From the IMG/VR virus record IMGVR_UViG_3300045988_167063: DNA of 64,000 bases; one strand, 5' to 3'. The notes below the pieces were generated by a model, which worked only from the letters and a program-made list of their open reading frames with translations, had not been told where the DNA came from and searched no databases. This stretch comes from a virus. A program made the position numbers and the translations under genes. This document shows, in pieces, positions 2,394 through 50,025 of this stretch. The first letter of the stretch is position 1. The number at the start of each line of letters is the position of its first letter.

Positions 2394-2828
2394 TTAATGA
2401 AACATTTGATAAACTTCTTTAACTTTTGCTTTTACCATTGAACACTCTTCCATATCATCTTGACATATTTTAGCGAGTTCTCGGTAAACATCATTAACAT
2501 TATTTAAAAAATGTCCTAATTCATCGTGAGCCATTTGTAAATCATCGTCTTGTCTTGTTCTCTTATATTGTTCTTTGTAAGTCTTGTATGAAACAAATTC
2601 ATCCCAAGCATCTGCCAAATAATTGTCAATTTCTGTATGTTTAGCAATACTTTGAGCATTATCATCCTCATCGTATGCTTCACCTTTTATGACCTTGTTG
2701 AGTTTATGTTCCACTTTCATCAAATCCTTTAGATAATCTAAAAGATTTTCAGTAATTGACATATCACTTACCATTTCATATTCTTCAACAATATTTTTAA
2801 GAATTTTTTGGGCAATCTGTTTATCCAT
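2394..2828 (-). CDS. hypothetical protein (late block)
   Basis: ORF track gives 2394..2840. ATG at 2828 lies 8 nt after GGTGG, so that start is preferred. Confidence 0.65.
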   Translation of the reverse strand: MDKQIAQKILKNIVEEYEMVSDMSITENLLDYLKDLMKVEHKLNKVIKGEAYDEDDNAQSIAKHTEIDNYLADAWDEFVSYKTYKEQYKRTRQDDDLQMAHDELGHFLNNVNDVYRELAKICQDDMEECSMVKAKVKEVYQMFH

Positions 2829-3039
2829 TAACATCACCACCTATTTTATTCAAAATTAAATCAAGTTTTTTATCTTGCTCTTCTAAATGATTATGAATAT
2901 CTATAAGCATATTGTGCATATTTTTTTCTAAATCATCTTTGGTTATGACCTTATCATAAGTCATAATTCCCAACATAGTTCCCATTACAGAAACTACATC
3001 AAGAGCAGATATTTCTTGTCGAACATTATTGTTTGCCAT
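2821..3039 (-). CDS. hypothetical 72-aa protein
   Basis: ORF track; only a 1-nt gap from the upstream gene. Confidence 0.6.
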   Translation of the reverse strand: MANNNVRQEISALDVVSVMGTMLGIMTYDKVITKDDLEKNMHNMLIDIHNHLEEQDKKLDLILNKIGGDVNG

Positions 3040-3040
3040 A

Positions 3041-3469
3041 TTAAGACAATTTTGTAACTGTTACATTAGCATTTGTTATTGTAACAGGTGTTCCGTCATT
3101 TTGAATAGTAAGATTAAGTGGAATATTATCAGTAACAGCACAGCAATTTGGACTTACTCTAACCATAAACTGTGATTGAGATAAGTTCATAATTACAGTA
3201 TCAGCAGTAGCAGACTGTGAAGCCTCAAAGCCTTCAATCTGTGTGCCATTACCATACAAATGGAATGTCGCTGTGCCACCTGCCGTTGCGACTGTACTTG
3301 CCGTTGCAGTGAAATCTACAAGATACCAACCTGCCCTATGCAAGCTAATAGCCGAACTTCCTGCCGAATGTCTTACTGTGCAAGAATTACTATTATAATT
3401 AGTTGTAAATACCACGGCACTGCCTGTATTTACTGTTTGTGTAGTATTAGAGAATGTAGTCAAAGCCAT
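3041..3469 (-). CDS. C1q/TNF-like (BclA C-terminal-domain-like) jelly-roll protein, possible fibre tip or receptor binder
   Basis: Pattern FS..TQ.V..GSAV.F...I.H..GS..I.L...G.Y.V.F...A.F.LY.NG..I is typical of BclA-CTD-like domains. Start moved to ATG 3469, after AAAGGA. Confidence 0.5.
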   Translation of the reverse strand: MALTTFSNTTQTVNTGSAVVFTTNYNSNSCTVRHSAGSSAISLHRAGWYLVDFTATASTVATAGGTATFHLYGNGTQIEGFEASQSATADTVIMNLSQSQFMVRVSPNCCAVTDNIPLNLTIQNDGTPVTITNANVTVTKLS

Positions 3470-3530
3470 TATATCAAGTCCTTTCAAGTATTTAGCATAT
3501 CGCACTTATACTGAAATAACTTTATCTAAA

Positions 3531-3611: not shown

Positions 3612-4298
3612 TTATGCTACTGTTCCGCAACCATTGCAATTACTGTAACCATATACATTTGTTGGGGTTGTATATGGTGAGCAAGTAATATAAGACGGAA
3701 TTGGGAACGGTCTTAAAAGGTTGACAAGGTTTGCAGACTGTGCTTGCTGTGAAAGTTGGAAGTTTGCAGTCTGTAATTCTCTATCTCTGTCCTCAAGTTT
3801 ATCACGAAGGTCTTGCATTGTATTAGCGTTAATCAATGCACGAGTAGCTTCGCCCTCTGCGTGAATTGCAGTAGTAATTTCGCAAGTGTTCTGTGCATTT
3901 TCATAACGAACTGCATCAATGTTGCGATTGGTTGTGCAACAGCAATCTTTCATTTGATAACCAAGTTCTGTAATGCCACCTGAAACACCATTAAAACCAT
4001 TAAGCATAGTTGTATTCATAGCATAAAAGCCATCACACAAACCATTAGAAATGCCATCAAGTTTATTAATAATTTGGTTAGTGTCAAATCCTCTCTGAAT
4101 ATCAGCCTGTGTTGCATAAGTGCCAACAGCACCATTACCATAGCCACCCCAAGCACTACCTCCACCAAAAAGAAGAATAAACACAATTATAAGAGCGAGA
4201 ATACCACCAGCACCACCACTAAGGAAACCGCCGTTGTCATCATTATTCTTTGTGAGAGCGAGAGCATCTCCAATACTTAAACCATTATCCATTGCCAT
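3612..4298 (-). CDS. membrane-anchored Gly-rich / Cys-rich protein with C-terminal coiled coil
   Basis: ORF track, 228 aa. TM segment ILALIIVFILLF flanked by G-rich runs. SD AAAGGAG upstream. Confidence 0.7.
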   Translation of the reverse strand: MAMDNGLSIGDALALTKNNDDNGGFLSGGAGGILALIIVFILLFGGGSAWGGYGNGAVGTYATQADIQRGFDTNQIINKLDGISNGLCDGFYAMNTTMLNGFNGVSGGITELGYQMKDCCCTTNRNIDAVRYENAQNTCEITTAIHAEGEATRALINANTMQDLRDKLEDRDRELQTANFQLSQQAQSANLVNLLRPFPIPSYITCSPYTTPTNVYGYSNCNGCGTVA

Positions 4299-6905: not shown

Positions 6906-8030
6906 TTATATAAAATAAAAATGCAATCCATATACGGATTGTCTTTCTTTTCTACAAACTCTGCCGACACAATCTTTTAGTATATTCAATGTCTTTTCAG
7001 CTTGAGAAATGCTTTCAAATACTTTATCTTTTTCGACGCAATAAACCTTTTTTCTTTTTATGTTTTTTGAAGGAGTATATAATCCTCTCTTACTATCTTC
7101 AACATTATAGTTTACAAGGTTTAATTTATTTGCTTTTTTTAATAATTTACAAAACTCAAAAGAAGATATTTTTAACTTTTCTGCCATTTCTTTCATTGAC
7201 AATATACCAAGATTGTTATTAAACATATCAACAGCATAAGAAAGTAAATTGTGGTTAATCAATTCATTTTCTAATTTATCCCAATCAAATTTGTTTAAAT
7301 CAAAATAATTAAATAAACTACTATTTAAAATATTATTTTTTATATATTCAAAATCACTCTTAAAACAATTTATTCTAATTATTTTATAGCCGTTTTGAGT
7401 TGCCATTAAATTTTTTTGTCTATCTATTTCTTCTTGATTTATGTTTTTATTAAAACCTATAATTCCCGTTTTATGAAATATTCCATCCATTTCAATTATA
7501 ATTTTATTATTCTCAATTACAAAATCATAAATCCTTCTATTCGACCACTCAAACATTTTTTCTCGCTCAAAAGGAATGTTTAATTGTTTAAGTAAACAAT
7601 ACATAAATCTATTCGGATAACTATATCCTTTCCCACACTTAGGGCAAGCAAATCCTTTATTAACCAAATCTGATAATTTTTGTTTCCTTTCATTGTGACA
7701 AATAGGACAGACCATATCCACCTCTTGTGAACTTCCAAAGGTATAATTATAAGCTTCTTTTTTATTTTTAAAATAAACTAAATATTGTGGATAAATAGTA
7801 GCAAAATCATTTTTTCCAATAACGAGTTTTCTTCCGCCACAAACACCACATCCACTAACACCTCTCATAATAGCATTTGCCTCATTACAAATGCCCTCTG
7901 TCCCACAAATTTTACACTTGTATTTTATAGGAGAGTGTGCATTTTTATATTTGCTAATTATTTTTAAATTAGGGTTATTTTTACTAACCCTTTTTTCAAA
8001 ATCTTTTTGAGATAACTGATTATATGTCAT
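6906..8030 (-). CDS. free-standing homing-endonuclease-like protein (zinc ribbons + Vsr/DUF559-like nuclease core + C-terminal DNA-binding module)
   Basis: CKICG..CGVCG and CPIC..CPKCG ribbons. RIYDFVIENNKIIIEMDGIFH resembles the DUF559/Vsr-fold motif. The tail KVYCVEKDKVFESISQAEK..VCRKERQSVYGLHFYF resembles NUMOD/IENR modules. Start taken at ATG 8030. Confidence 0.6.
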   Translation of the reverse strand: MTYNQLSQKDFEKRVSKNNPNLKIISKYKNAHSPIKYKCKICGTEGICNEANAIMRGVSGCGVCGGRKLVIGKNDFATIYPQYLVYFKNKKEAYNYTFGSSQEVDMVCPICHNERKQKLSDLVNKGFACPKCGKGYSYPNRFMYCLLKQLNIPFEREKMFEWSNRRIYDFVIENNKIIIEMDGIFHKTGIIGFNKNINQEEIDRQKNLMATQNGYKIIRINCFKSDFEYIKNNILNSSLFNYFDLNKFDWDKLENELINHNLLSYAVDMFNNNLGILSMKEMAEKLKISSFEFCKLLKKANKLNLVNYNVEDSKRGLYTPSKNIKRKKVYCVEKDKVFESISQAEKTLNILKDCVGRVCRKERQSVYGLHFYFI

Positions 8031-8037
8031 TATAAAA

Positions 8038-8829
8038 TTAACCGTTAATTTGTTGTATTTTCTGTTCAAAAGACTCTGCGTCTGTGAACATTTCTTTATA
8101 TTTATCAACCCTCTTTTTGAACATAGGATGTTTAACATCGTCTTTAACTTCATATTTAAAAGAGGCTTGTATTATCTTTTGTGCAAGATAAATTTCACTA
8201 TTTATACAATGATTAAATATTTGTTCAAAAGTTCTATAAACCATATTATTTATCTGTTCCATTGTATATCCATTTTTACTCATTACATAAGTTTTCTGTT
8301 CTTCTAATGTTGGATTGTGAACTCCTTTATTAACCATTTTACAATATTTTTCATATTCGGCTTTTACATCAGGATTGACATATCTATCATCATAATCTTT
8401 GTCATTTTGAAATAATATTATCTTTTTTATATCATCAAATTCTTTTGCCGATATAATACTTTCTATAATATCATTTTCACCAAGAACTACAATACAATCT
8501 TTGCCATTATCTTTTGATAAAGCAATATTTTTATGAATACATAATTGAAACAACATTGCAAATAAACTTTGAGTATTTATATCTACTAAAACTCGATTGA
8601 TTAAAAATTCTAAATAATTCATTTGAATAACATCAATATCATTTATTGTATTTTTATCAATTTCTAAAAGTTCTTTACAATTTGCATAAATAGGAAAATC
8701 TTTTACTTTAATGGGGTATATAAATATTTCTGCTCCTTTTTTTAGTTCATAAGGAACAGCATACTCGTTAATAAAATAATTTAATTGCAAGTTATCAATA
8801 TCAACCAATACAACCACCACTTTGAGCAT
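8038..8829 (-). CDS. hypothetical virion/morphogenesis protein
   Basis: ORF track, 263 aa. The 5' end overlaps the upstream gene by 29 nt, so the start is uncertain. Confidence 0.65.
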   Translation of the reverse strand: MLKVVVVLVDIDNLQLNYFINEYAVPYELKKGAEIFIYPIKVKDFPIYANCKELLEIDKNTINDIDVIQMNYLEFLINRVLVDINTQSLFAMLFQLCIHKNIALSKDNGKDCIVVLGENDIIESIISAKEFDDIKKIILFQNDKDYDDRYVNPDVKAEYEKYCKMVNKGVHNPTLEEQKTYVMSKNGYTMEQINNMVYRTFEQIFNHCINSEIYLAQKIIQASFKYEVKDDVKHPMFKKRVDKYKEMFTDAESFEQKIQQING

Positions 8830-9415
8830 TTACATATCTCATTGCCATAGTGAGAGAACGACCGAATATGGTTTTACTATTTGTAAGTCCAATAGTTGAG
8901 CCTGTAACACGATATAATTCTCTGTCAAAAGATAAATAACTACTTCCTATATTTATATCCCTACCATTAAAAACTGCCAAAAACAAACTTTCCATTAAAT
9001 CTGTTCGTTCACATAAAACACCCTCATAATAAACAAGGCAAGTTTTTTCATTTGTTAAGAAATCAAAATCATAACAAATAATTGCACTATTTCTTGCTTC
9101 GGGTACTGTTTGTGAACGATATAATCTAAATTGTGTTTGACTTTGGCTATCTGAAAGAATTGAGCCAACAATAGGCTTTAAGAAAACACGATAATTCTGT
9201 TCATCCGTTTCGCCTGTCCAAATATAATTCCTTTTTTGTTCAAAAGTTAAATTATCTTTATCTAAAGCATCTTTAGTGTCATAAATTAAACACTTCCAAA
9301 AATCTTCTGCCATTTGGCTTTTTTCTTTCATTAAAAATTCTAATATCTTATAAGTTACTAAAGGCTGTTGAGAAAAATCATTATAAGACATTGTATTATT
9401 ACCATTATAATTCAT
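8801..9415 (-). CDS. hypothetical virion/morphogenesis protein
   Basis: ORF track, 204 aa, in the late block. Confidence 0.65.
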   Translation of the reverse strand: MNYNGNNTMSYNDFSQQPLVTYKILEFLMKEKSQMAEDFWKCLIYDTKDALDKDNLTFEQKRNYIWTGETDEQNYRVFLKPIVGSILSDSQSQTQFRLYRSQTVPEARNSAIICYDFDFLTNEKTCLVYYEGVLCERTDLMESLFLAVFNGRDINIGSSYLSFDRELYRVTGSTIGLTNSKTIFGRSLTMAMRYVNAQSGGCIG

Positions 9416-15324: not shown

Positions 15325-16956
15325 CTATTGATACTCACGACTGACCGCTCCACCCTCAGCTAAATCACTATTATCCTTTTGTGGTGCGCCAATATCGTAA
15401 GTATTTGTATTAGCATTAAACAAGGCAAATAAAGTATTTTGCATATCACTATGTTTAGCCTCTTTTACCATTGTTTCAAATTCACTGCCCTCATAACCTA
15501 AAAGAGTTCCCCACTTTCTTAAAGGCACTTGTATTCCTTTATCAGATAATTTTAAATGAGTATCAATATCTTCTTTCCTCTTAAAAGGCAGTGTACTACC
15601 ACTAACACGAAATCTAAATTTATATCTTTTAGTTTTCTTGTTTACAAAGAAATTTAAAAAGTTTTCAAATTGTGGATAAACTGCATTTGCAATTTCTTGA
15701 TAATCAGCGTTTGCAGCCAACTGTGCCTCTTCTTGTGATAATCTTTCATCTGTATAAATAAGTGAACTATTTGAAGCACCTAAACCAGCACTTGTTTTAA
15801 GTTGATTTTTATACATATTACTATTATTATCAGCAAATTGATAAAGCCTTGTTTCTTCAAGAGGTAAAGCAATTTGCTTAATATTTTTGTTAATGCCATT
15901 TCTTGCCAATCTCATAAGTTGTCCGACAACTTTAGGGTCAATAGTAAAGGCATTTTTATTATTGCCAACATTATCTTTATCTCTTGTTTTCATTTCTCCA
16001 AGAATAATTGCATTTGCAGAAATAATATCCTTATCTCTTTGTAATTTAGAAATTATATCATCATCAAATACTGACTTTAATAAGGAAGTTAAAGGTGGAA
16101 CAGTATTAAAATTAGAGGTATCATATTTAAACAACCAACTTCCTGCATTTACCTTTGTTCTTATATAATTTTCAGCATTAAAAGTATTTTGCCTACCCAA
16201 ATTTGACATATTGTCTACAATAAAGTTTTGCATTTGTTTGCTATTATCTTTACTACTTTGTCCTAATTTAGAATAGGCTTGGGCAAGTGTTTCGTCATAA
16301 TTAAGAACATTTACATTTGAACCATTAAAATAATTCAAATTAAAATCCCATAAAAAGCCATTTGCCCCACTACTTATAAAACGACCTGTGAGTTTACAAT
16401 ACTTTTGTGGCATCATTTGTAATGAAAAAGACTCTTTATTATCGTTCAAATCAATCGGAGTATCGTCAAAAGTCTTTTCGCTATCTCTAAGCCAACAAAA
16501 ATAAGTATCTGTTTTGAGCATATTTTTGACAACATTTCTAAATTCTTGTTTCGCTTTAAAATAATTAAAGAATTTATCTACTCTTTTGCAATCCTCTTTA
16601 TACTCTTCACTTTCAAACTCATCATCGTCTACTATATTAATCGGAACTCTATCTATATCAAAAGCCAATAAATTTGTTTTATATTCTATTGCCCTTTTAT
16701 AAATAGCATCCCAAGTTTCCATAAATTCGGAATAATCTTGTAATGTTTCAGCAGAATTTTTATAAGTAGCAATAGCTTGCCTTAAACTATCTCTGTCAGG
16801 TATTTGTTCATTATTATTTAAGTCAACTAATGTTTTATATTCGTTTATAGTATCATAAAAATAATTATTCTTATCTAATGGTGCTGAACTATAAAGTGCG
16901 TTCATAAAATCAATTACATTCCACACTTCGTCACGAGTTATAACTTCATCAGGCAA
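15325..16956 (-). CDS. portal protein (putative)
   Basis: 543 aa, immediately downstream of terL. Size and position fit a portal protein. Confidence 0.55.
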   Translation of the reverse strand: MPDEVITRDEVWNVIDFMNALYSSAPLDKNNYFYDTINEYKTLVDLNNNEQIPDRDSLRQAIATYKNSAETLQDYSEFMETWDAIYKRAIEYKTNLLAFDIDRVPINIVDDDEFESEEYKEDCKRVDKFFNYFKAKQEFRNVVKNMLKTDTYFCWLRDSEKTFDDTPIDLNDNKESFSLQMMPQKYCKLTGRFISSGANGFLWDFNLNYFNGSNVNVLNYDETLAQAYSKLGQSSKDNSKQMQNFIVDNMSNLGRQNTFNAENYIRTKVNAGSWLFKYDTSNFNTVPPLTSLLKSVFDDDIISKLQRDKDIISANAIILGEMKTRDKDNVGNNKNAFTIDPKVVGQLMRLARNGINKNIKQIALPLEETRLYQFADNNSNMYKNQLKTSAGLGASNSSLIYTDERLSQEEAQLAANADYQEIANAVYPQFENFLNFFVNKKTKRYKFRFRVSGSTLPFKRKEDIDTHLKLSDKGIQVPLRKWGTLLGYEGSEFETMVKEAKHSDMQNTLFALFNANTNTYDIGAPQKDNSDLAEGGAVSREYQ

Positions 16957-16980
16957 TAACGACTATTCCTCCTTTCTTAT

Positions 16981-17556
16981 TTAACCATAATCGTAAATAT
17001 CACTGAAATCATCTAAATCAATTTCAGCATCTTGTTCATCTTTCACATACTTAATATAGACTTTATCACAAAAGTAATTAAACATTGCCAAAGTCATATA
17101 TCTATCCTTTGTAGCTGTACTTTTTTCTTTAACTCTAACACCTTTATCTTTAAATTCTGTTGTTAAAGTAATTGCCTCATTAATAGCATACCTTGTTTCA
17201 ACAAACGGTACAAGGTCATAAGCCTTCTTTTCAGAGGACTTCAATATCCATTTACTATCTTTTTCTTGAAATAGTAATTCCATTTCAGAGTCATCTTTAA
17301 GAAAACTAATTATATTATCTTTAAGATTTTTTCTCATCGCTAAGTGCATATCACTATTGATTTCACTTGTACCAGCAATAGGAATAATTACTTCTTCGGC
17401 ATTAGAGTCCATAGTCCTATTAATTTTATCATTTATGATTTTATCAGAGCTTATTTGTAAAATTTTATCTCTACATACAGTCCACGCAGGATATGTAATA
17501 TCTCTTTCATCATCATATGTTTCAGTTGTCAATAAATCAAAGAAAACATTTCCTAC
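16981..17556 (-). CDS. terL: terminase large subunit, exon 3 (nuclease domain)
   Basis: Begins VGNVFFDLL directly after the intron-terminal G. Continues the MDSKG motif of exon 2. Confidence 0.7.
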   Translation of the reverse strand, partial: VGNVFFDLLTTETYDDERDITYPAWTVCRDKILQISSDKIINDKINRTMDSNAEEVIIPIAGTSEINSDMHLAMRKNLKDNIISFLKDDSEMELLFQEKDSKWILKSSEKKAYDLVPFVETRYAINEAITLTTEFKDKGVRVKEKSTATKDRYMTLAMFNYFCDKVYIKYVKDEQDAEIDLDDFSDIYDYG

Positions 17557-17911
17557 CAATTATGTTATCATATAAGTTTTTTATCTTATATTTCTTATAG
17601 TTGTATTTCCTATAAGTTCGGCGTACCTTTTCATCTAATAAATTTATTTATATAAAAATGACAAGTTTATTTTATTTTTTTGCGTTCCAAAATACATATA
17701 CTTCTTCACTTATTATCATTTATTACTACTAATTATTTATTAGATGCCGAGAACTCTTGGCAAAATTATATTCTATAAAAATAGTTTCATTTGCTACGCT
17801 CTGCGTGTGACTATTCTTTTAAAAATAGCCTTCCACTCGGATTGACATTTCAGTTTTTCCGTTTCTTTCTCGGTTCGATTATATATCACTATATAAAAGG
17901 GCGAAGTTTTC
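17557..17911 (-). mobile_element. ORF-less group I intron (terL intron 2)
   Basis: The 3' end ..CTTATAG-N9-CTATAAG..ATATAAG-N8-CTTATAT-GATAACATAATTG is shared, with compensatory changes, with the introns at 18893-19178 and 24047-24936. The 5' exon ends in GGU. Confidence 0.7.
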
Positions 17912-18892
17912 ACCTTTTGAGTCCATAACAAAATATGTGCATTTATAATCATAAAATAATCTTTTTATCATTACAATTTGTTTTTGAGAATTTAAACCAT
18001 TTTCGGCTTTTATATACTCTACTTTTCTTTGATTTGTTTCTATATCTATATTTCCTAATACAAAAACTGTATTATCGTTTTCTCTACCACCACTAACGGC
18101 AATATCCATTGCCAATACTCTTATTTCATTTTCGTGACTAAAATCATATTTATTTTTAATATTATAATAATAGTCATCATTTGTAGTTGGTAAAAAAGCA
18201 GTTTCAAGCACTTGATTTTTATGAAAATCATCATACAAAAACAAACTACCTTCTGTTTCACCAAGCCACAAATTCAAAAACTCCATTTCAAAATCCAAAT
18301 CATTTGTATTTTCTCGTCTTGTTAAATACTGATTTTTTGTTTGAATTTTATTAGCAACTGCTGTAAATATATCACCTGCAAAAAAGCCATATTTAATTCT
18401 TTTATCTGTGTAATGCTTTCTAACTACTGTTTTTAAATAAGTCCAAACCCAATTATCTTTCGTTCTTGCCGAAGTCATAAATATTTGCTTTGGCTCAATC
18501 ATTAACCCATTAAAACTATATGGCTCAAGCATAGGTTCAACAATAGACTCATAGTCTCTTTTCTTAACAATTCTTGCCTCATCTGTTATAGTTATATTAG
18601 CTCTTGCACCACGACCTGTTTCATTACACGCAACAGCGAATATTTTACTACCATTGCCATATTCGACAACTCTACCACCTGTTGTTTTATCTTTTGTAAA
18701 GTTAATATAGCCATCTGCTCGTAGTTGTTTTAAAATAGGACTTATGCCTTTTTTGTCACTACTTAACAACTTATCAATTTTATCATCAATAATTTTATTA
18801 CTTTGACCTAAAGTAAGCGAAGTAATAGCAATTTGAACTCCGGGTAAAAGCAAAGCAAGGTCATTGGCGAGAACACCTATGGTAAAGGATTT
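17912..18892 (-). CDS. terL: terminase large subunit, exon 2
   Basis: KSFTIGVLAND.. completes the Walker A motif begun in exon 1. Ends ..YFVMDSKG. Confidence 0.75.
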
Positions 18893-19178
18893 CAATTTTG
18901 TTATCGTATAGGCTCTTTATCCTATACTTCTTATACTGTACTAATTTTCGTATAAGTTCAGAGTACATTTTCATACATAAATACAGAGTATGTGGACACT
19001 CTTGGTGATATTATATTCTTCCATTTCAAAAGTTTCAATCACTACTCGTTACAATACTATTAATTTTTACATTAAATAGTTATCTCGGTGTTGTACTTAA
19101 AATTAGTGTAGTTTCACCGATTTTGCCCAATTTGCTTTATAACTATCTATAATTCATTATAAAGGAGCATTATTATTT
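18893..19178 (-). mobile_element. ORF-less group I intron (terL intron 1)
   Basis: Splits IASRGLS|KSF inside the P-loop. The 5' exon GAGU pairs with GCUC 10 nt into the intron. The 3' end ..GTATAGG-N8-CCTATAC-GATAACAAAATTG matches the family. Confidence 0.75.
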
Positions 19179-19418
19179 ACTCAATCCTCTACTTGCAATA
19201 AACGCATAAATATCATATTCCCAACAGTCAAGTAATACTTGTCTTTGAAAATAATGTAGTGGTATTTTTAAATGTTCTTCAGTAAAAATATCAAGATTAT
19301 TAAGATAAAATAATTGCCAATTAGCAATTCTCCTATCATAATCTTTTTTACTCAATTTTTTATTTTCTTTTATTTTCTTTTCTTTTGCCAAGCTAATAAG
19401 TTGTTTTTCGTCAATCAA
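19179..19418 (-). CDS. terL: terminase large subunit, exon 1
   Basis: ..YFQRQVLLDCW..FIASRGLS is an N-terminal ATPase Walker A segment. Confidence 0.75.
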
Positions 19419-20355
19419 GATTATATTTGTCTATGTCATCAATAGATAAATTAAAATCTCTATTGCCTGCCAACATATTTCCTAACGGTCTTAAAACCAT
19501 ATCTTTTTCATATTGATGTACTTTATTGAGGTCATAATATCTGCTTGGCTCTGAATATACATCCTCGACATTATTTTCGTCTACAAGTCTTATCTTTTCA
19601 AACAAAGACTGTTCCGAAGCCGTTTTAGGCTTATTGCTTTCATATTCATCAATACGAAGTTTATTCATATCTCTTATAATTCGATTTTGAACTTTATCTC
19701 TTGTTTCTTCACCACTATATGAACCGTCATCAATTTTTCTCAATAGCAATCTATCTCTACATAAATCACGATAAAGGTCATCTTGCGGTTCATTTATGAT
19801 TTCTACATTTTTTGTATATCTCTCATAGGTTCTTTCAAGATATTGATAATCTTCTGAACTTTCTTGTTTTCCCCAATTAAGTTCAAATTCATCAAGTTCT
19901 TTTTGTCTTAATTCTCGTTGTTCTATTCTACTATCAATATCACTTAAATTAACATTTGTTGCTGATAATTCATTCCAAATATTCTTTTTAGTTTTTGACT
20001 TATGTAATTCAGAAATATACAATCCCAAATAATTGTTCATTCGTTTGCCTTCTTTGCGACCTTCTTTCATTCGGTTTTCGACACCTGCCCAAACCTCAAG
20101 AATAAAAGGAATGTCATTTCGCAAACAAGTATAATAAACGGCTGATTTCATACTACAACCATTTTTAATATAATAATCAATCATTTTTTGACAACAATCT
20201 TTACAATAAGGTGTATGCCCACTTGCAAAAGGTGACCAACTTTCGTAAAAATTAGTCGCACCTCTCATACCACTACACCCTAATTCTGTATTATTGCCGA
20301 GGCAAAGAAACATATCGGTTTCCTTTTTTATGTTTTTAGAAGCCAACGCTTTCAC
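19411..20355 (-). CDS. terminase small subunit candidate (Cys-rich N-terminus)
   Basis: 314 aa, overlaps the terL start by 8 nt. The call rests on position only. Confidence 0.3.
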   Translation of the reverse strand: MKALASKNIKKETDMFLCLGNNTELGCSGMRGATNFYESWSPFASGHTPYCKDCCQKMIDYYIKNGCSMKSAVYYTCLRNDIPFILEVWAGVENRMKEGRKEGKRMNNYLGLYISELHKSKTKKNIWNELSATNVNLSDIDSRIEQRELRQKELDEFELNWGKQESSEDYQYLERTYERYTKNVEIINEPQDDLYRDLCRDRLLLRKIDDGSYSGEETRDKVQNRIIRDMNKLRIDEYESNKPKTASEQSLFEKIRLVDENNVEDVYSEPSRYYDLNKVHQYEKDMVLRPLGNMLAGNRDFNLSIDDIDKYNLD

Positions 20356-23072: not shown

Positions 23073-24046
23073 TTAGTCATTTTCGCCAAAAATAAAGCAA
23101 TTTAAGAATTTTTCTTTGTTTGTTTTATACAAAACATTAAGCATTTTTCTTGTAAATTTAGATGTTGATTTATCAATAGGTCTACCTGTAATATTACTTT
23201 CAAGACCCAAAGCACTTTCAACAAGTCTATTGATTGTCACTAAATTATTTACTTTAACCTTTGAAACATTGTCAATTAACTGTTGAAATTTCTCAATATT
23301 TTTTTCAACATCATTTCCTTGCTCTTTATTAGTTTTTACAAAAGTATCATATTCATCAACGAGTTTTCGTATTTTAGACATTTGCCTATGATTAGGTTTT
23401 CCCTCAATCTTAACAAAAAACTCATTTGTCGGAATAGTGTTTGTTGTACCACTTGGCTCAATCTCGTCTAAAATTTCTTCAAGCCAATTCATAGGACAAA
23501 TTATATCATAGTTAATTCTATCATAAACTTTTTTCTTATTATTTCTAACAATCTCAAAAGACAACTCTACACCATTTTTAGTATACGGAATATCTTTTGT
23601 ATATTTCATAAATTTAGGATAATCACATTTGACTTTTTTTTCTTTGTCATTATTTGTAATTATTGTTTTAGTTTTTTGCATACAAGACATATTTTGTATT
23701 CTGTCTATTTCATCCATTCCGTTAATTTCATACTCTCTTTTACACCCATCAATTATAATTTGGGCAACAACAGATAAAATCACAAAATTATTATACAAAT
23801 CTTCATCTTGTTCAGTCCAATAATAACTCATAGCAAGTTGAGCTAAATTACTCGACCATCCTATTCCGAGCCTTGATTTAGCAAATTTATTATCCATTTG
23901 AGAATAAGCAAGTTTTGTATTTTCGTATGTAATAGAACTTTCTTTTAGTTGATTTACAATAGTAGGAAATTCATCATAACATCTTTTTGCACACTTAACC
24001 ATAATGGGATTATTGGTTGCAAAAATGAAGTCAGAATCGAAATCTG
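23073..24046 (-). CDS. YonO/QDE-1-like single-subunit double-psi-beta-barrel RNA polymerase, exon 2
   Basis: The frame is open only from 24053. Begins (S)DFDSDFIFATNNP, the metal-binding Asp triad. Confidence 0.6.
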
Positions 24047-24936
24047 CAATATGTTATCGTATAGGTTTTTTATCCCATACCTCTTATGGTTTCCCATAAG
24101 TTCAGACTATCTCTTTACCCTCGTCTTATCCGTTAGGGTATTCGGCACTCTTGCAAAGGATTATTGTTTGTCTACTCACCTTGTAGTCGTTAAACCTTAC
24201 TGCCTACTTTTACGACATTCAGCAGTCTTGGTAATTGATTGGCTTATGTGTGTTAATTTTTGCAATATATCCATAGCAAGGCTTATTACATTTTGCCCTT
24301 CTTGCTATAAATCCACTAATTGCATTTATGCTTCCTTTAAGGTTCTGTTTAGTTTTAATCCATTCCGAACAATTCTTTATGCAAGAAAACGATTTTACCA
24401 AATTATCATTTTTATATAAGTCGACAGACTTACTTTTACCATTTTTATCTCCGAGTTTACAAACACTATATTTACCAATATCGGAACTATATCGAACATT
24501 ATCTTTGTGTGTAATCCATTCAAGATTATCAACACGATTATTTGTTCTATTATAGTCTTTATGATTTATTTCTAAATATTTATTTGGATTTGGAATAAAT
24601 GCTTCTGCTACTAATCTGTGAACAGATACATATCTTTTATTTCCACACATTTGTAAACAAACTACTTTATATCCATCTGAATTTGTTTTTGGCTTTTTAA
24701 TCTTTTCATTCCTTACAATATATCCACATTTTGCTTGTGGATGAGGAACTTTTCTACAAAGAGATTTTACTCTTCCAAAATTACTAATTTGATAATAGCC
24801 TAAAAATCCATCTATATCCTTCCATTGTTCTTTCAAAAAATCACCTCCTTGTTTATTTTTTTACACACACTTAGCGTTCCAATTTTCACCGAATAGTTTT
24901 AGAAAAGTGTTTCCACTTAACCGACCCATTTTATTA
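24047..24936 (-). mobile_element. group I intron carrying an HNH homing endonuclease gene
   Basis: The 5' exon ..AAUGGCU pairs with GGGUC 9 nt downstream. The 3' end CTTATGG-GAAA-CCATAAG..GTATGGG-N8-CCTATAC-GATAACATATTG matches the terL intron family. The last nucleotide is G. Confidence 0.75.
24219..24836 (-). CDS. intron-encoded HNH homing endonuclease (NUMOD4 + HNH_3)
   Basis: N-terminal EQWKDIDGFLGYYQISNFGRVKS (NUMOD4). HRLVAEAFIPNP..INHKDYNRTNNRVDNLEWITHKDN (HNH). Confidence 0.85.
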   Translation of the reverse strand: MKEQWKDIDGFLGYYQISNFGRVKSLCRKVPHPQAKCGYIVRNEKIKKPKTNSDGYKVVCLQMCGNKRYVSVHRLVAEAFIPNPNKYLEINHKDYNRTNNRVDNLEWITHKDNVRYSSDIGKYSVCKLGDKNGKSKSVDLYKNDNLVKSFSCIKNCSEWIKTKQNLKGSINAISGFIARRAKCNKPCYGYIAKINTHKPINYQDC

Positions 24937-26746
24937 AGCCATTAGTCCTATCTTGTAAATCCGTTCCAATACAATTCACAGCCACAATATTCTCACTAAA
25001 AGGAAAATATTTTTGCATCTCTTTTGAGTAAGTATTTTTTAAATAACAAATATTATTTGGACTGTTTTGAGGTGACCTTATACCACATAAATATTCTCCG
25101 TCATTAAATCTTGTAGTATAACATTGAATAGTTCCCTGCTCTTGTTCAAAGCAAGGGTCTTTAGTCCAATCCTCGCCAACTGCATATAACAGTAAAGCAT
25201 AGGGGTTTCCACACATTGTCAAATTATCTGCATTGACAGTTATTTTGCCTTTACGCAATTTTTCAACATAAGCAAAAATAATTTTTCGCTTTTCAGTTCT
25301 AAACCACTTACTATTTGCAAAATCTTTATTTTGATTATATAAATCTGCCATCATTTCATAATGATTTATTTCATTTGCATTTAATCTTAAAAACTTTTCA
25401 AACTCATCGTTATCTTGCTTTAACTTTTCAACATACGCTACACTATATTGAGCAAGTTCTTTAATTTCATCTTTACTACAAGGCAATGAATTAACCATTT
25501 GATAACTCATTTGTTGAACATTTCCGAGTTTACTTTTATGGTCTGTTTTAACGATACCAAAAATGCTGTTGTCAGCCTTTATTCTATCACACCAATATTT
25601 ATAAGGGTTATCCCCCATAAGCTCTGTAAACTTTTTCCATTTAATCGCATTGTCTGTTGTAATAACTTTAATATTTTTTGCTAAATGTTTCACGCCAAAC
25701 ATATCTTCAATTTCAAAAGTTTCATAATCAACATTGTTTTCAATACACCAATCTTTTAAAAATTGTTGTAAATTAGTTCTAAATCCACACATTTTAAAAA
25801 AATGATTTCTTAACAACATCATTCCGTTGACATATTTAGGCATTATAGAAGTTTCAACTAACCCCATACCATCCCATAAAGTATTTTTTAGATTAACATT
25901 TTCTTTATGTACGACACATTTTTTAGTTGGTACTCGTATTTTTTTAAATACTCTTTTAGGCTTTTTACCTTGACTTAAAGCTTTTTGTCTATTAATTTCA
26001 GTTTTTTCTGTATCAATAACTTTTTTCTCAACAAAATACTCTTCAGCTCTAACAATATTTGCCATTGTTTGAAAATAACTATCTTGGTCTTTTAAAATTA
26101 AAATATCCTCAACAGGAATATGAATGTTCCCTACAATAGTGCTTGTAGTTAAAGGGGCATAAGCAGACATTTCAACAATTTTTGCCTTTTTTTTATCCAT
26201 TTTGTTCCCCAAACCCATAGTAAGCCATTCGTATGCTGTTTTATAATACTTTTCGTTAATAAAGATAGATTGCCCGACTTTAGCTTTTGAGGGCGTTCTA
26301 AAGAGCATTTTATAATGAATTGTTTGTGTCTTTTTTATTGCTCCGTTCTTATCTCTTGTCACATAATCAATAGAAACACCATTTTGATAATATTCATCTC
26401 TTATTTCTTCCATACTCTTTTTTATAAATTTATCTTTATTCTCGTGTACTGTATTTAAAATTTCATTTAATCGTTCTAATGATTTTTCATCTGCTTTTTC
26501 AATAAGCGTTTCTATCTGTTGTACTTTTTCTTCATAAGACTTTGAGCCAAAGTCAAATTCAAGACAAACAATATCTCTTGTAGACTCACCTTTGTAAACA
26601 TTAAGACCTTTATTTATAATATAATTACTAAACAATGAATTATTAAACATTGCGTCAGTATAATCAAGCCTATCCCTTACTCCGAGATTATATTCATAAA
26701 GCGTTCCTGCCTTAATATTTTTAATTTTTATTCCAAACTCGGACAA
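24937..26746 (-). CDS. YonO/QDE-1-like single-subunit RNA polymerase, exon 1
   Basis: TTG start after AAGGAGTGA. The C-terminal CGIRSPQNSPNNICYLKN...IVAVNCIGTDLQDRTNG resembles the beta-prime segment NRaPtlHr..iqaf...i.l.PlvC.afNADFDGD. Confidence 0.6.
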
Positions 26747-43029: not shown

Positions 43030-43058
43030 TTGACAATTAAATAAATTTATGATAATAT
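43030..43058 (+). promoter_or_regulatory. sigma-A-type promoter
   Basis: AAAAACACTTGACA-17-TGaTAATAT. Confidence 0.7.
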
Positions 43059-43110
43059 GTTATTGTAATCGAAAGCAATAACATATTATTTTTTTTAGGA
43101 GGATTTGATT

Positions 43111-49186: not shown

Positions 49187-49260
49187 AGAGAGTTAGTATA
49201 ATAGTAGTACAACAGACTTTGAATCTGTCGGAAAAGGGGCAGAACCTTTACTCTCTGCCA
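49187..49260 (+). tRNA. tRNA-Gln(UUG)-like cloverleaf with non-canonical D and T loops and an encoded CCA
   Basis: Acceptor AGAGAGT/ACTCTCT, D stem GTAT/GTAC, anticodon arm ACAGA-CTTTGAA-TCTGT, T arm AAAGG-GGCAGAA-CCTTT, then GCCA. Confidence 0.55.
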
Positions 49261-49956: not shown

Positions 49957-50025
49957 GCAGATATAGTCCAAGTAAGGCATCTATTAACTAAATAGAAAAT
50001 AAGAGTTCAATTCTCTTTATCTGCC
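49957..50025 (+). tRNA. tRNA-like element with an aberrant anticodon loop
   Basis: Acceptor GCAGATA/TATCTGC, canonical T arm AAGAG-TTCAATT-CTCTT, 3-bp D stem. Anticodon arm TCTAT-TAACTAA-ATAGA lacks U33. No encoded CCA. Confidence 0.45.

Follow-up and report, generated by a model that had tools for sequence, protein, structure and literature searches.

In a 64,000-nt stretch of viral DNA (IMG/VR record IMGVR_UViG_3300045988_167063; the whole stretch is referred to below as the window), the large terminase gene, terL, is very likely one gene into which two group I introns of the IA type are inserted; these introns resemble those of phage Twort and contain no open reading frame (ORF). A third intron of the same broad class, carrying an HNH homing-endonuclease gene, very likely interrupts the gene of a putative YonO-like RNA polymerase (RNAP). 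The two terL introns are denoted I1 and I2, and the coordinates of all features, which lie on the minus strand, are collected in Table 1. Three minus-strand ORFs, at 19173..19418, 17879..18895 and 16981..17559, translate as FIASRGLSK up to a stop, as (L)KSFTIGVL through YFVMDSKGENF to a further stop, and as (L)VGNVFFDLL, respectively. These readings are exactly those of an earlier note on this DNA, which had proposed that terL consists of three exons split as SRGLS/KS and VMDSKG/VGN (here and below, the slash marks a junction between exons).

The proposed split is confirmed by alignment with a 97% identical phage contig (L001), in which terL is an uninterrupted gene encoding 598 aa. The DNA alignment fixes both insertions to the base: the first, 19178..18893, is exactly 286 nt long, with a placement ambiguity of 4 nt (AAAT), and the second, 17911..17557, is exactly 355 nt long, with an ambiguity of 1 nt (G). 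These are the lengths given in the earlier note, which had also described both gaps as free of ORFs; indeed, neither insert contains an ORF of at least 60 aa or anything endonuclease-like. A 5' exon ending in U, combined with an insert ending in G, is obtained at both junctions only with the placement chosen in that note. Excision of I1 and I2, with the boundaries taken from intron-less alleles, restores the frame exactly and yields a protein of 598 aa that is 94-99% identical to uninterrupted 598-aa database proteins. The predicted ligated junctions are GGATTGAGT joined to AAATCCTTT and TCAAAAGGT joined to GTAGGAAAT (in longer form, AGAGGATTGAGT joined to AAATCCTTTACC and GACTCAAAAGGT joined to GTAGGAAATG). 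The suggested comparison with intron-less terL homologs gave a concordant result, as no indel was present at either junction in a MAFFT alignment of 107 full-length homologs; the sole gap in the two junction blocks is a one-residue insertion, in one homolog, six residues downstream of junction 1. The first junction falls inside the Walker A motif, ASRGLS/KSF, which we take to correspond to the Walker A SRQLGKT of T4 gp17, and the second falls inside a conserved block, VMDSKG/VGN, which may be a nuclease motif. The spliced protein matches the PHROG family phrog_2, terminase large subunit, over residues 34-574 (E=3e-20), and, in tblastn, forms one continuous alignment (coverage of 90-94%) with terminases annotated in phages of Enterocloster and Thomasclavelia and in SPbeta-like phages (YonF); its identity to the SPbeta YonF-like lineage is about 28%.

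The same data bear on the possibility that the three ORFs are translated separately, as a split terminase, or that the inserts are DNA elements (a miniature inverted-repeat transposable element or an insertion sequence) unrelated to splicing. Gene callers do give separate proteins of 523, 445 and 370 aa, but these truncated terL homologs in a large protein database are fragments produced by the callers, and the breaks lie within Walker A and within the conserved VMDSKG/VGN block. No ribosome-binding site precedes exon 2 or exon 3, whose sole potential start is the TTG supplied by the last bases of the preceding intron, and none of the three ORFs taken separately has a significant Pfam match. 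As for DNA elements, the inserts show covarying RNA helices and the pseudoknot topology of group I introns, described below, and they have no terminal inverted repeats, no target duplication beyond the ambiguity of 1-4 nt, and no transposase. Both versions of this alternative are thus extremely improbable.

The evidence that the inserts of this single terL gene are group I introns comes from a family of related sequences. The window contains exactly three copies of a 3' module, GAAC-hairpin-hairpin-GATAACA..TTG, all on the minus strand (17563-17619, 18899-18959 and 24052-24103), compared to an expectation of zero in shuffled sequence, and the module is present in more than 120 IMG/VR contigs, representing about 100 distinct introns. 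The hairpins quoted in the earlier note for the 3' ends of the three introns, as well as the compensatory changes among them, are correct, except that the P9 loop of I1 has 13 nt rather than 12. We built a covariance model, denoted R1, from a seed of 29 relatives from other contigs, which were picked by the 3' module and did not include window-type sequences. In the seed alignment, 91.2% of the cells are paired, compared to 35-40% when the partners are slid by 1-3 columns, and 42 of 52 pairs changed on both sides; the observed values were reached by none of 500 shuffles. The claim of conserved, covarying helices is thus upheld across these 29 relatives. RNAalifold, together with explicit pair counts, recovers P3, P4, P5, P6, P7.1, P8, P9, P9.1 and the P7 pseudoknot. 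The paired fraction is 95% for P3, 80-90% for P6, 100% for P7, 97% for P7.1 and 90% for P8; P4 and P5 are weaker (68% and 72%, respectively). A G-C pair in P7 (columns 161-321), with one unpaired nucleotide 5' of it, is invariant in all 29 sequences and, given its position, would be the guanosine-binding site. A covarying hairpin between P7 and P3' (columns 166-170 with 225-229), 97% paired in the seed, is formed in both I1 and I2.

A search of the 64 kb with R1 yielded exactly three strong full-length matches, namely I1 (144.2 bits, E=4e-36), I2 (126 bits, E=2.5e-31) and the RNAP intron (122.8 bits, on its 3' part), and the next best score was 12.7 bits; the ORF-less allele of the RNAP intron in L001 scored 151.7 bits. 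The terL introns and the RNAP intron thus form one structural family, as had been suggested. Because the seeds of R1 were chosen by the 3' module, the search was repeated on the cores alone, which gave 68 bits for I1 (model positions 36-165, P3 to P3') and 82 bits for I2. The other long ORF-free gaps in the window had no further match to R1 or Rfam. Taken together, the R1 matches, the P7 pseudoknot, the covariation, and the homology to Rfam-positive and Twort introns substantiate the group I nature of I1 and I2 that the earlier note had favored.

All three introns end in TTG, that is, with a terminal G (omega-G), and a P1 helix with a U.G wobble is readable in each: GAGU:GCUC in I1, AAAAGGU:GCC(C)UUUU in I2, and GGCU:GGUC, from intron nt 11, in the RNAP intron (the colon separates pairing strands). 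The proposal that each 5' exon ends in U and can pair with a guide sequence 9-10 nt into the intron thus holds, by direct reading, for the three introns; covariation in P1 is limited to a single pair that may be compensatory, seen when I2 is compared with the L131-type copies of that intron. Alignment to the full R1 model indicates that every core helix can form in I1 and in I2. After transcription, each intron would fold into a group I core made up of P1 and two domains, P4-P6 and P3-P8, the latter including the P7 pseudoknot; an exogenous guanosine would dock at the G-C pair of P7 and attack the phosphate that follows the exon-terminal U of the U.G wobble; this site would then be occupied by the last G of the intron, and the released 5' exon would attack the 3' splice site. 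Ligation would thereby rebuild Walker A from SRGLS and KS, connect VMDSKG with VGN, and produce the terminase of 598 aa. Catalysis itself, and its autonomy, are what we infer from this architecture.

Several points weigh against this interpretation. Splicing is a prediction from sequence, and it may depend on a protein cofactor. The P1 helices are short (4 bp in I1) and were identified by eye, and a P10 helix between the 3' exon and the guide sequence was also sought by eye, with nothing convincing found. The full-length R1 score owes part of its value to the same 3' module that was used to choose the seeds, for which the core-only searches serve as a control. Finally, RF00028, the Rfam model of group I introns, found neither I1 nor I2, even when tight slices were searched at E<=10.

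The last point requires a closer look, because the earlier note had proposed cmsearch with the Rfam group I models as a check; with no match to I1 or I2 at E<=10, this check would have wrongly rejected the terL introns. A scan of the whole window at Rfam gathering thresholds returned two tRNAs only and no group I match, and scans at E<=10 of 16900-19500 and of each terL intron alone returned noise-level matches to snoRNAs and miRNAs only. The gathering threshold of RF00028 (50) is, however, exceeded by the ORF-less RNAP allele in L001 (83.5 bits, E=5e-22) and by several relatives that share the 3' module (70-95 bits); in the matches of these relatives, the first hairpin of the 3' module aligns to P9 of the model and GAUAUAGUC aligns to J8/7-P7'. 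Since the relatives with the 3' module and the ORF-less RNAP allele match RF00028, and since R1 finds I1 and I2, the negative result with RF00028 is uninformative. The RNAP intron of the window itself is missed by RF00028 because a 660-nt ORF, the HNH gene, sits in its P5 loop.

The ORF-less RNAP allele and the relatives with a UAGUC-type P7' match RF00028 across the whole model, whereas I1 and I2 do not. Among 95 sampled introns (loci L007-L126, IMG/VR), P7' is UAGUC in 19, UAUGC in 45, UACGC in 20 and UACUC in 11, and each type co-occurs with its own complement 45-145 nt upstream (14/19 for UAGUC, 34/45 for UAUGC, 15/20 for UACGC and 9/11 for UACUC), compared to 0-5 for the wrong types. None of the non-UAGUC relatives, about 10 in an Rfam scan of 20 loci, was detected at the gathering threshold; therefore, Rfam-based annotation probably misses most of the family with this 3' module. 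The difference of the P7 of I1 and I2 from the GACUA:UAGUC of the Rfam-positive members probably explains why Rfam misses them. In the variants GCAUA:UAUGC, GCGUA:UACGC and GAGUA:UACUC, which together account for about 80% of the roughly 95 sampled instances, the altered pairs stack on the guanosine-binding G-C. A bolder proposal, which we consider rather unlikely, is that I1 and I2 represent large P7-variant clades of Twort-like group I introns overlooked by Rfam and, separately, that a second copy of the RNAP intron in a relative of the window (L002; see below) arose by reverse splicing or by co-copying of the flanks. If so, standard Rfam annotation would overlook the majority of these introns in gut phages. 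It should be noted that one IMG/VR contig (L065) appears to have two distinct group I introns in a stretch of about 400 nt, of which one is Rfam-positive (3624-3845) and the other is Rfam-negative and of the UAUGC type (motif at 3435-3490), suggesting that genes with several introns may be common in this collection.

The points raised against splicing could also be read to mean that I1 and I2 derive from group I introns but have lost splicing, so that terL would be a pseudogene in a defective phage or a prophage remnant. This reading draws on the fact that splicing is known as a prediction only, on the failure of Rfam to recognise either intron, and on an extra, AT-rich P8 expansion of about 90 nt in I2. 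However, all three terL exons are intact, with the protein retaining its near-identity to uninterrupted alleles, and the core helices are all formable in both introns. In addition, I1 with its flanks is conserved in at least eight contigs, and the I2 lineage is kept at the same site in a terL that is 68% identical, with changes that preserve pairing, and the P8 expansion lies in a peripheral loop closed by a 12-bp stem. A loss of splicing is accordingly quite improbable, and we retain the view of terL as an intact gene that is predicted to be spliced. The P8-loop expansion (17644-17734, minus strand) has no ORF and is missing from the copies in L130-L133; it is possibly the remnant of a lost endonuclease gene.

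The earlier note had also suggested that three related introns in one genome reflect recent intragenomic spread, and this suggestion is not supported by comparison with other phages. That I1, I2 and the RNAP intron are recent copies of one intron within this genome is suggested by their common 3' module, about 85 nt long, and by L002, whose RNAP gene has the RNAP intron in two places, as copies that are 100% identical, meaning that intragenomic copying does happen in this phage group. However, outside the shared module the three introns barely align, the module is common to the many contigs and distinct introns counted above, and each of the three is closer to introns of other phages. For example, the alignment score of I1 is 67 bits with I2 and 48 bits with the RNAP intron but 163 bits with an intron of another contig (L039), and I2 reaches 186 bits with that of L063. 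The I2 lineage is found at the same site (codons 407/408) in L130-L133, where terL is about 68% identical and the intron, with its short P8, measures about 250 nt. In addition, I1 and I2 occur independently of each other among near-identical genomes. Recent copying within this genome is therefore very improbable for these three introns, which, judging from the sequences compared, appear to be separate acquisitions from a large pool.

The distribution of alleles indicates how such acquisitions may proceed. I1 alone is present in L002-L005 and L127-L129, both introns are present in L006, and neither is present in L001 and L137-L141. All eight alleles with I1 share the flanks GCA AGT AGA GGA TTG AGT and, downstream of the intron, AAA TCC TTT ACC ATA GGT GTT, whereas different codons specify ASRGLS in six uninterrupted alleles, which represent four distinct sequences: GCT TCT CGT GGA, then CTT or TTA, then TCA or TCT. 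Within 30 nt on either side of junction 1, the uninterrupted alleles have 12-24 mismatches, compared to 3-7% gene-wide; the recoded flanks are at 19179-19196 and 18872-18892 (minus strand) of the window, compared to 10224-10270 of L001 and the corresponding parts of L137-L141. The guide sequence of I1 cannot pair with any of the six uninterrupted alleles. At junction 2, the flanks in L001 are the same as those of the intron-bearing alleles, whereas the other uninterrupted alleles differ. A ligated 27-mer with the I1-type flank was absent from IMG/VR and Joint Genome Institute (JGI) metagenome DNA contigs; the unspliced I1 junction was found in three IMG/VR contigs. Such recoding would be expected if flanks were co-converted during homing, and selection for P1 pairing may have strengthened it; the flanks of I1 look like a co-conversion tract, or like the result of selection for P1 pairing or for immunity of the homing site. 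Being present or absent among near-identical phages and having recoded exon flanks, the introns are mobile at the DNA level. Neither I1 nor I2 encodes an endonuclease, so that their movement must depend on recombination or on an enzyme of this kind supplied in trans. Natural intron-plus and intron-minus alleles with recoded flanks offer a clean population-level record of homing.

The duplication in L002 represents a different case. The two copies of the RNAP intron (2262-2537 and 2822-3097; 277/277 identical) are both flanked by TGGCT/CAG. The second site, uninterrupted in the window at about 23757-23775 (minus strand), reads GTT GCC CAA ATT there and GTG GCT/CAG GTA in L002. The flanks of the second site thus seem either to have travelled with the intron or to have adapted to its guide sequence, and the event could be an ectopic transposition directed by the guide sequence (reverse splicing), or a copying of the intron together with its flanks, rather than classical homing by an endonuclease.

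The closest known counterparts of I1 and I2 are the introns of Twort orf142. R1 matches these introns over their full length, with 87, 76 and 44 bits (64-101 bits with RF00028), and they share with I1 and I2 the overall architecture and the 3' end, P7'-GAAC-P9 (GAAA loop)-P9.1-(G)UAACAUAAUUG; as in terL of the window, several related, small, ORF-less introns lie in one late gene. The host gene and the phage family differ, and the P7 of the Twort introns is the canonical GACUA:UAGUC, compared to GAGUA:UACUC in I1 and GCGUA:UACGC in I2, neither of which is found by RF00028. The Twort orf142 introns I1-I3 reportedly self-splice, as described by Landthaler & Shub in 1999, and the crystal structure of Twort I2 is said to have been reported by Golden et al. 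in 2005; we take these introns to be group I introns of subgroup IA2. By the P7.1 hairpin and the R1 matches to Twort, I1 and I2 would belong to subgroup IA (phage IA2, Twort-like), with the subgroup label of the Twort introns taken in part from PMC11878797. The terL of Twort (NC_007021) is itself annotated in three pieces, ORF151 (79 aa), ORF059 and ORF036, with two endonuclease genes between them. We compared its insertion codons with those of terL in the window, and the codons differ. Among 52 Bastillevirinae genomes, 5 have introns in terL, in some cases two or three of them, and these introns are mostly IA2/IA3-like (NAR 2025, PMC11878797). The Twort terL introns and most of those in Bastillevirinae carry endonuclease genes, whereas I1 and I2 carry none, and the TerL of the window is of the SPbeta YonF-like lineage, unlike that of Twort and Bastillevirinae. 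BLAST detected partial similarity to I1 and I2 in many phages that have been cultured, namely Staphylococcus phage 6ec, Clostridium perfringens phage phiCP39-O, Enterocloster phages, crAss-like phages and Yersinia phage phiR1-37. In view of Twort, Bastillevirinae and these relatives, both the kind of element and the arrangement of several introns in terL are already known. The understanding of group I introns is unchanged, and the arrangement is ordinary for phages of Firmicutes; what is added is an SPbeta-like gut phage lineage and a YonO-type RNAP gene among the known hosts of Twort-type group I introns.

The gene order in the window is SPbeta-like (YonO-YonN-YonJ-YonG-YonF-YonE-YonD; 29% G+C), and the flanking genes carry, in close relatives, the Pfam families YonJ, YonG, YonD, YomX and YomU, which identifies the window as an SPbeta-like phage. 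The spliced RNAP is in frame, with 927 aa, and matches phrog_8308 in one stretch, whereas gene callers split it into 609 + 309 aa; its homologs are annotated as RNA-dependent RNA polymerase. The intron interrupts the codon directly before DFDSD (DRTNG/SDFDSD), probably the aspartate triad that binds metal in a two-barrel RNA polymerase. From the gene order, the annotation of the homologs and the DFDSD motif, the protein would be a YonO-like two-barrel RNAP; a sequence search of the PDB gave no match, tblastn gave no direct match to SPbeta YonO, and a literature search on YonO together with introns turned up nothing relevant. All three introns lie in sequence coding for active-site motifs, namely Walker A, the VMDSKG/VGN block and DFDSD, the latter two of which may be a nuclease motif and the metal-binding site of the polymerase, respectively. 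With terL and RNAP fragmented by gene callers and the terL introns unflagged by Rfam, both the classification of this group of gut phages by terminase and the counts of phage genes without known function are distorted.

The ORF within the RNAP intron (24219-24836) matches NUMOD4 (58 bits, E=9e-16) and HNH_3 (42 bits, E=6e-11) in Pfam, both above the cut-offs, and the PHROG family phrog_59, HNH endonuclease (E=9e-43). Comparison with the ORF-less allele places it in the P5 loop, and its 3' end runs into P4'/P6. The endonuclease gene is present or absent among near-identical phages: L001 (3713-3988) and L002 have, at the same site, an ORF-less intron of 276 nt. HNH endonucleases in group I introns are characteristic of the phage group to which the window belongs; introns are found in bnrdE and bnrdF of SPbeta, and the intron of the DNA polymerase gene of SPO1 carries the HNH endonuclease I-HmuI. 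The endonuclease of the RNAP intron is likewise of the NUMOD + HNH type and lies in an SPbeta-like gene order, whereas the host genes differ, being terL and a YonO-like RNAP gene in the window compared to genes of nucleotide metabolism and DNA polymerase in SPbeta and SPO1.

Table 1. Exons, introns and intron elements of terL and of the RNAP gene in the window
Feature	Coordinates	Strand	Remarks
terL exon 1	19179..19418	-	Codons 1-80; 3' end ..GGA TTG AGT, Walker A SRGLS/; ORF, boundary from intron-less L001
terL intron 1 (I1)	18893..19178	-	286 nt; group I, no ORF; insertion defined precisely by L001; R1 full length
I1 internal guide sequence GCUC	19165..19168	-	Intron nt 11-14; would pair with exon end GAGU (P1, U.G at splice site); read from the sequence
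I1 P7, 5' strand A[C]GAGUA	19043..19049	-	Pairs with UACUCU at 18960-18965; pseudoknot, G-C at expected guanosine-binding position
I1 P9 hairpin (18930-18956) and P9.1 hairpin (18906-18927)	18906..18956	-	
terL exon 2	17912..18892	-	Codons 81-407; /KSFT...VMDSKG/; ORF, L001 alignment, homolog alignment
terL intron 2 (I2)	17557..17911	-	355 nt; group I, no ORF; insertion defined precisely by L001 and L002; R1
I2 internal guide sequence GCC(C)UUUU	17895..17902	-	From intron nt 10; pairs with exon end AAAAGGU; read from the sequence
I2 P7, 5' strand G[A]GCGUA	17795..17801	-	Pairs with UACGCC at 17620-17625
I2 extended P8	17632..17746	-	12-bp stem closing AT-rich loop of about 90 nt; fold z-score -2.8
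terL exon 3	16981..17556	-	Codons 408-598 and stop codon; ORF, L001 alignment, homolog alignment
RNAP exon 1 (YonO-like)	24937..26746	-	Ends ..ACT AAT GGC T
RNAP intron	24047..24936	-	890 nt; group I; homing-endonuclease gene in P5 loop
HNH homing endonuclease (NUMOD4 + HNH_3)	24219..24836	-	TTG start; strong ribosome-binding site AAGGAGGTGA
RNAP exon 2	23073..24046	-	Starts CA GAT TTC GAT (..G/SDFDSD..)

A loose version of the 3' motif at 43054-43067 was considered as a fourth intron copy and rejected, as it is part of a short intergenic inverted repeat and has no R1 match. The repeat, AATATGTTATTG..CAATAACATATT at 43054-43090 (minus strand), lies directly upstream of a gene start and may be an operator or a terminator. 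In L001, a gene of the TnpB/IS605 OrfB type (OrfB_IS605, Cas12f1-like_TNB; 7827-8942) lies between the YonJ-like and YonG-like genes, a position at which the window has no such gene. The two tRNA genes of the window, at 49187-49257 and 49957-50025 (plus strand; Rfam scores of 51.8 and 44.7 bits, respectively), are in an early or middle region of the phage.

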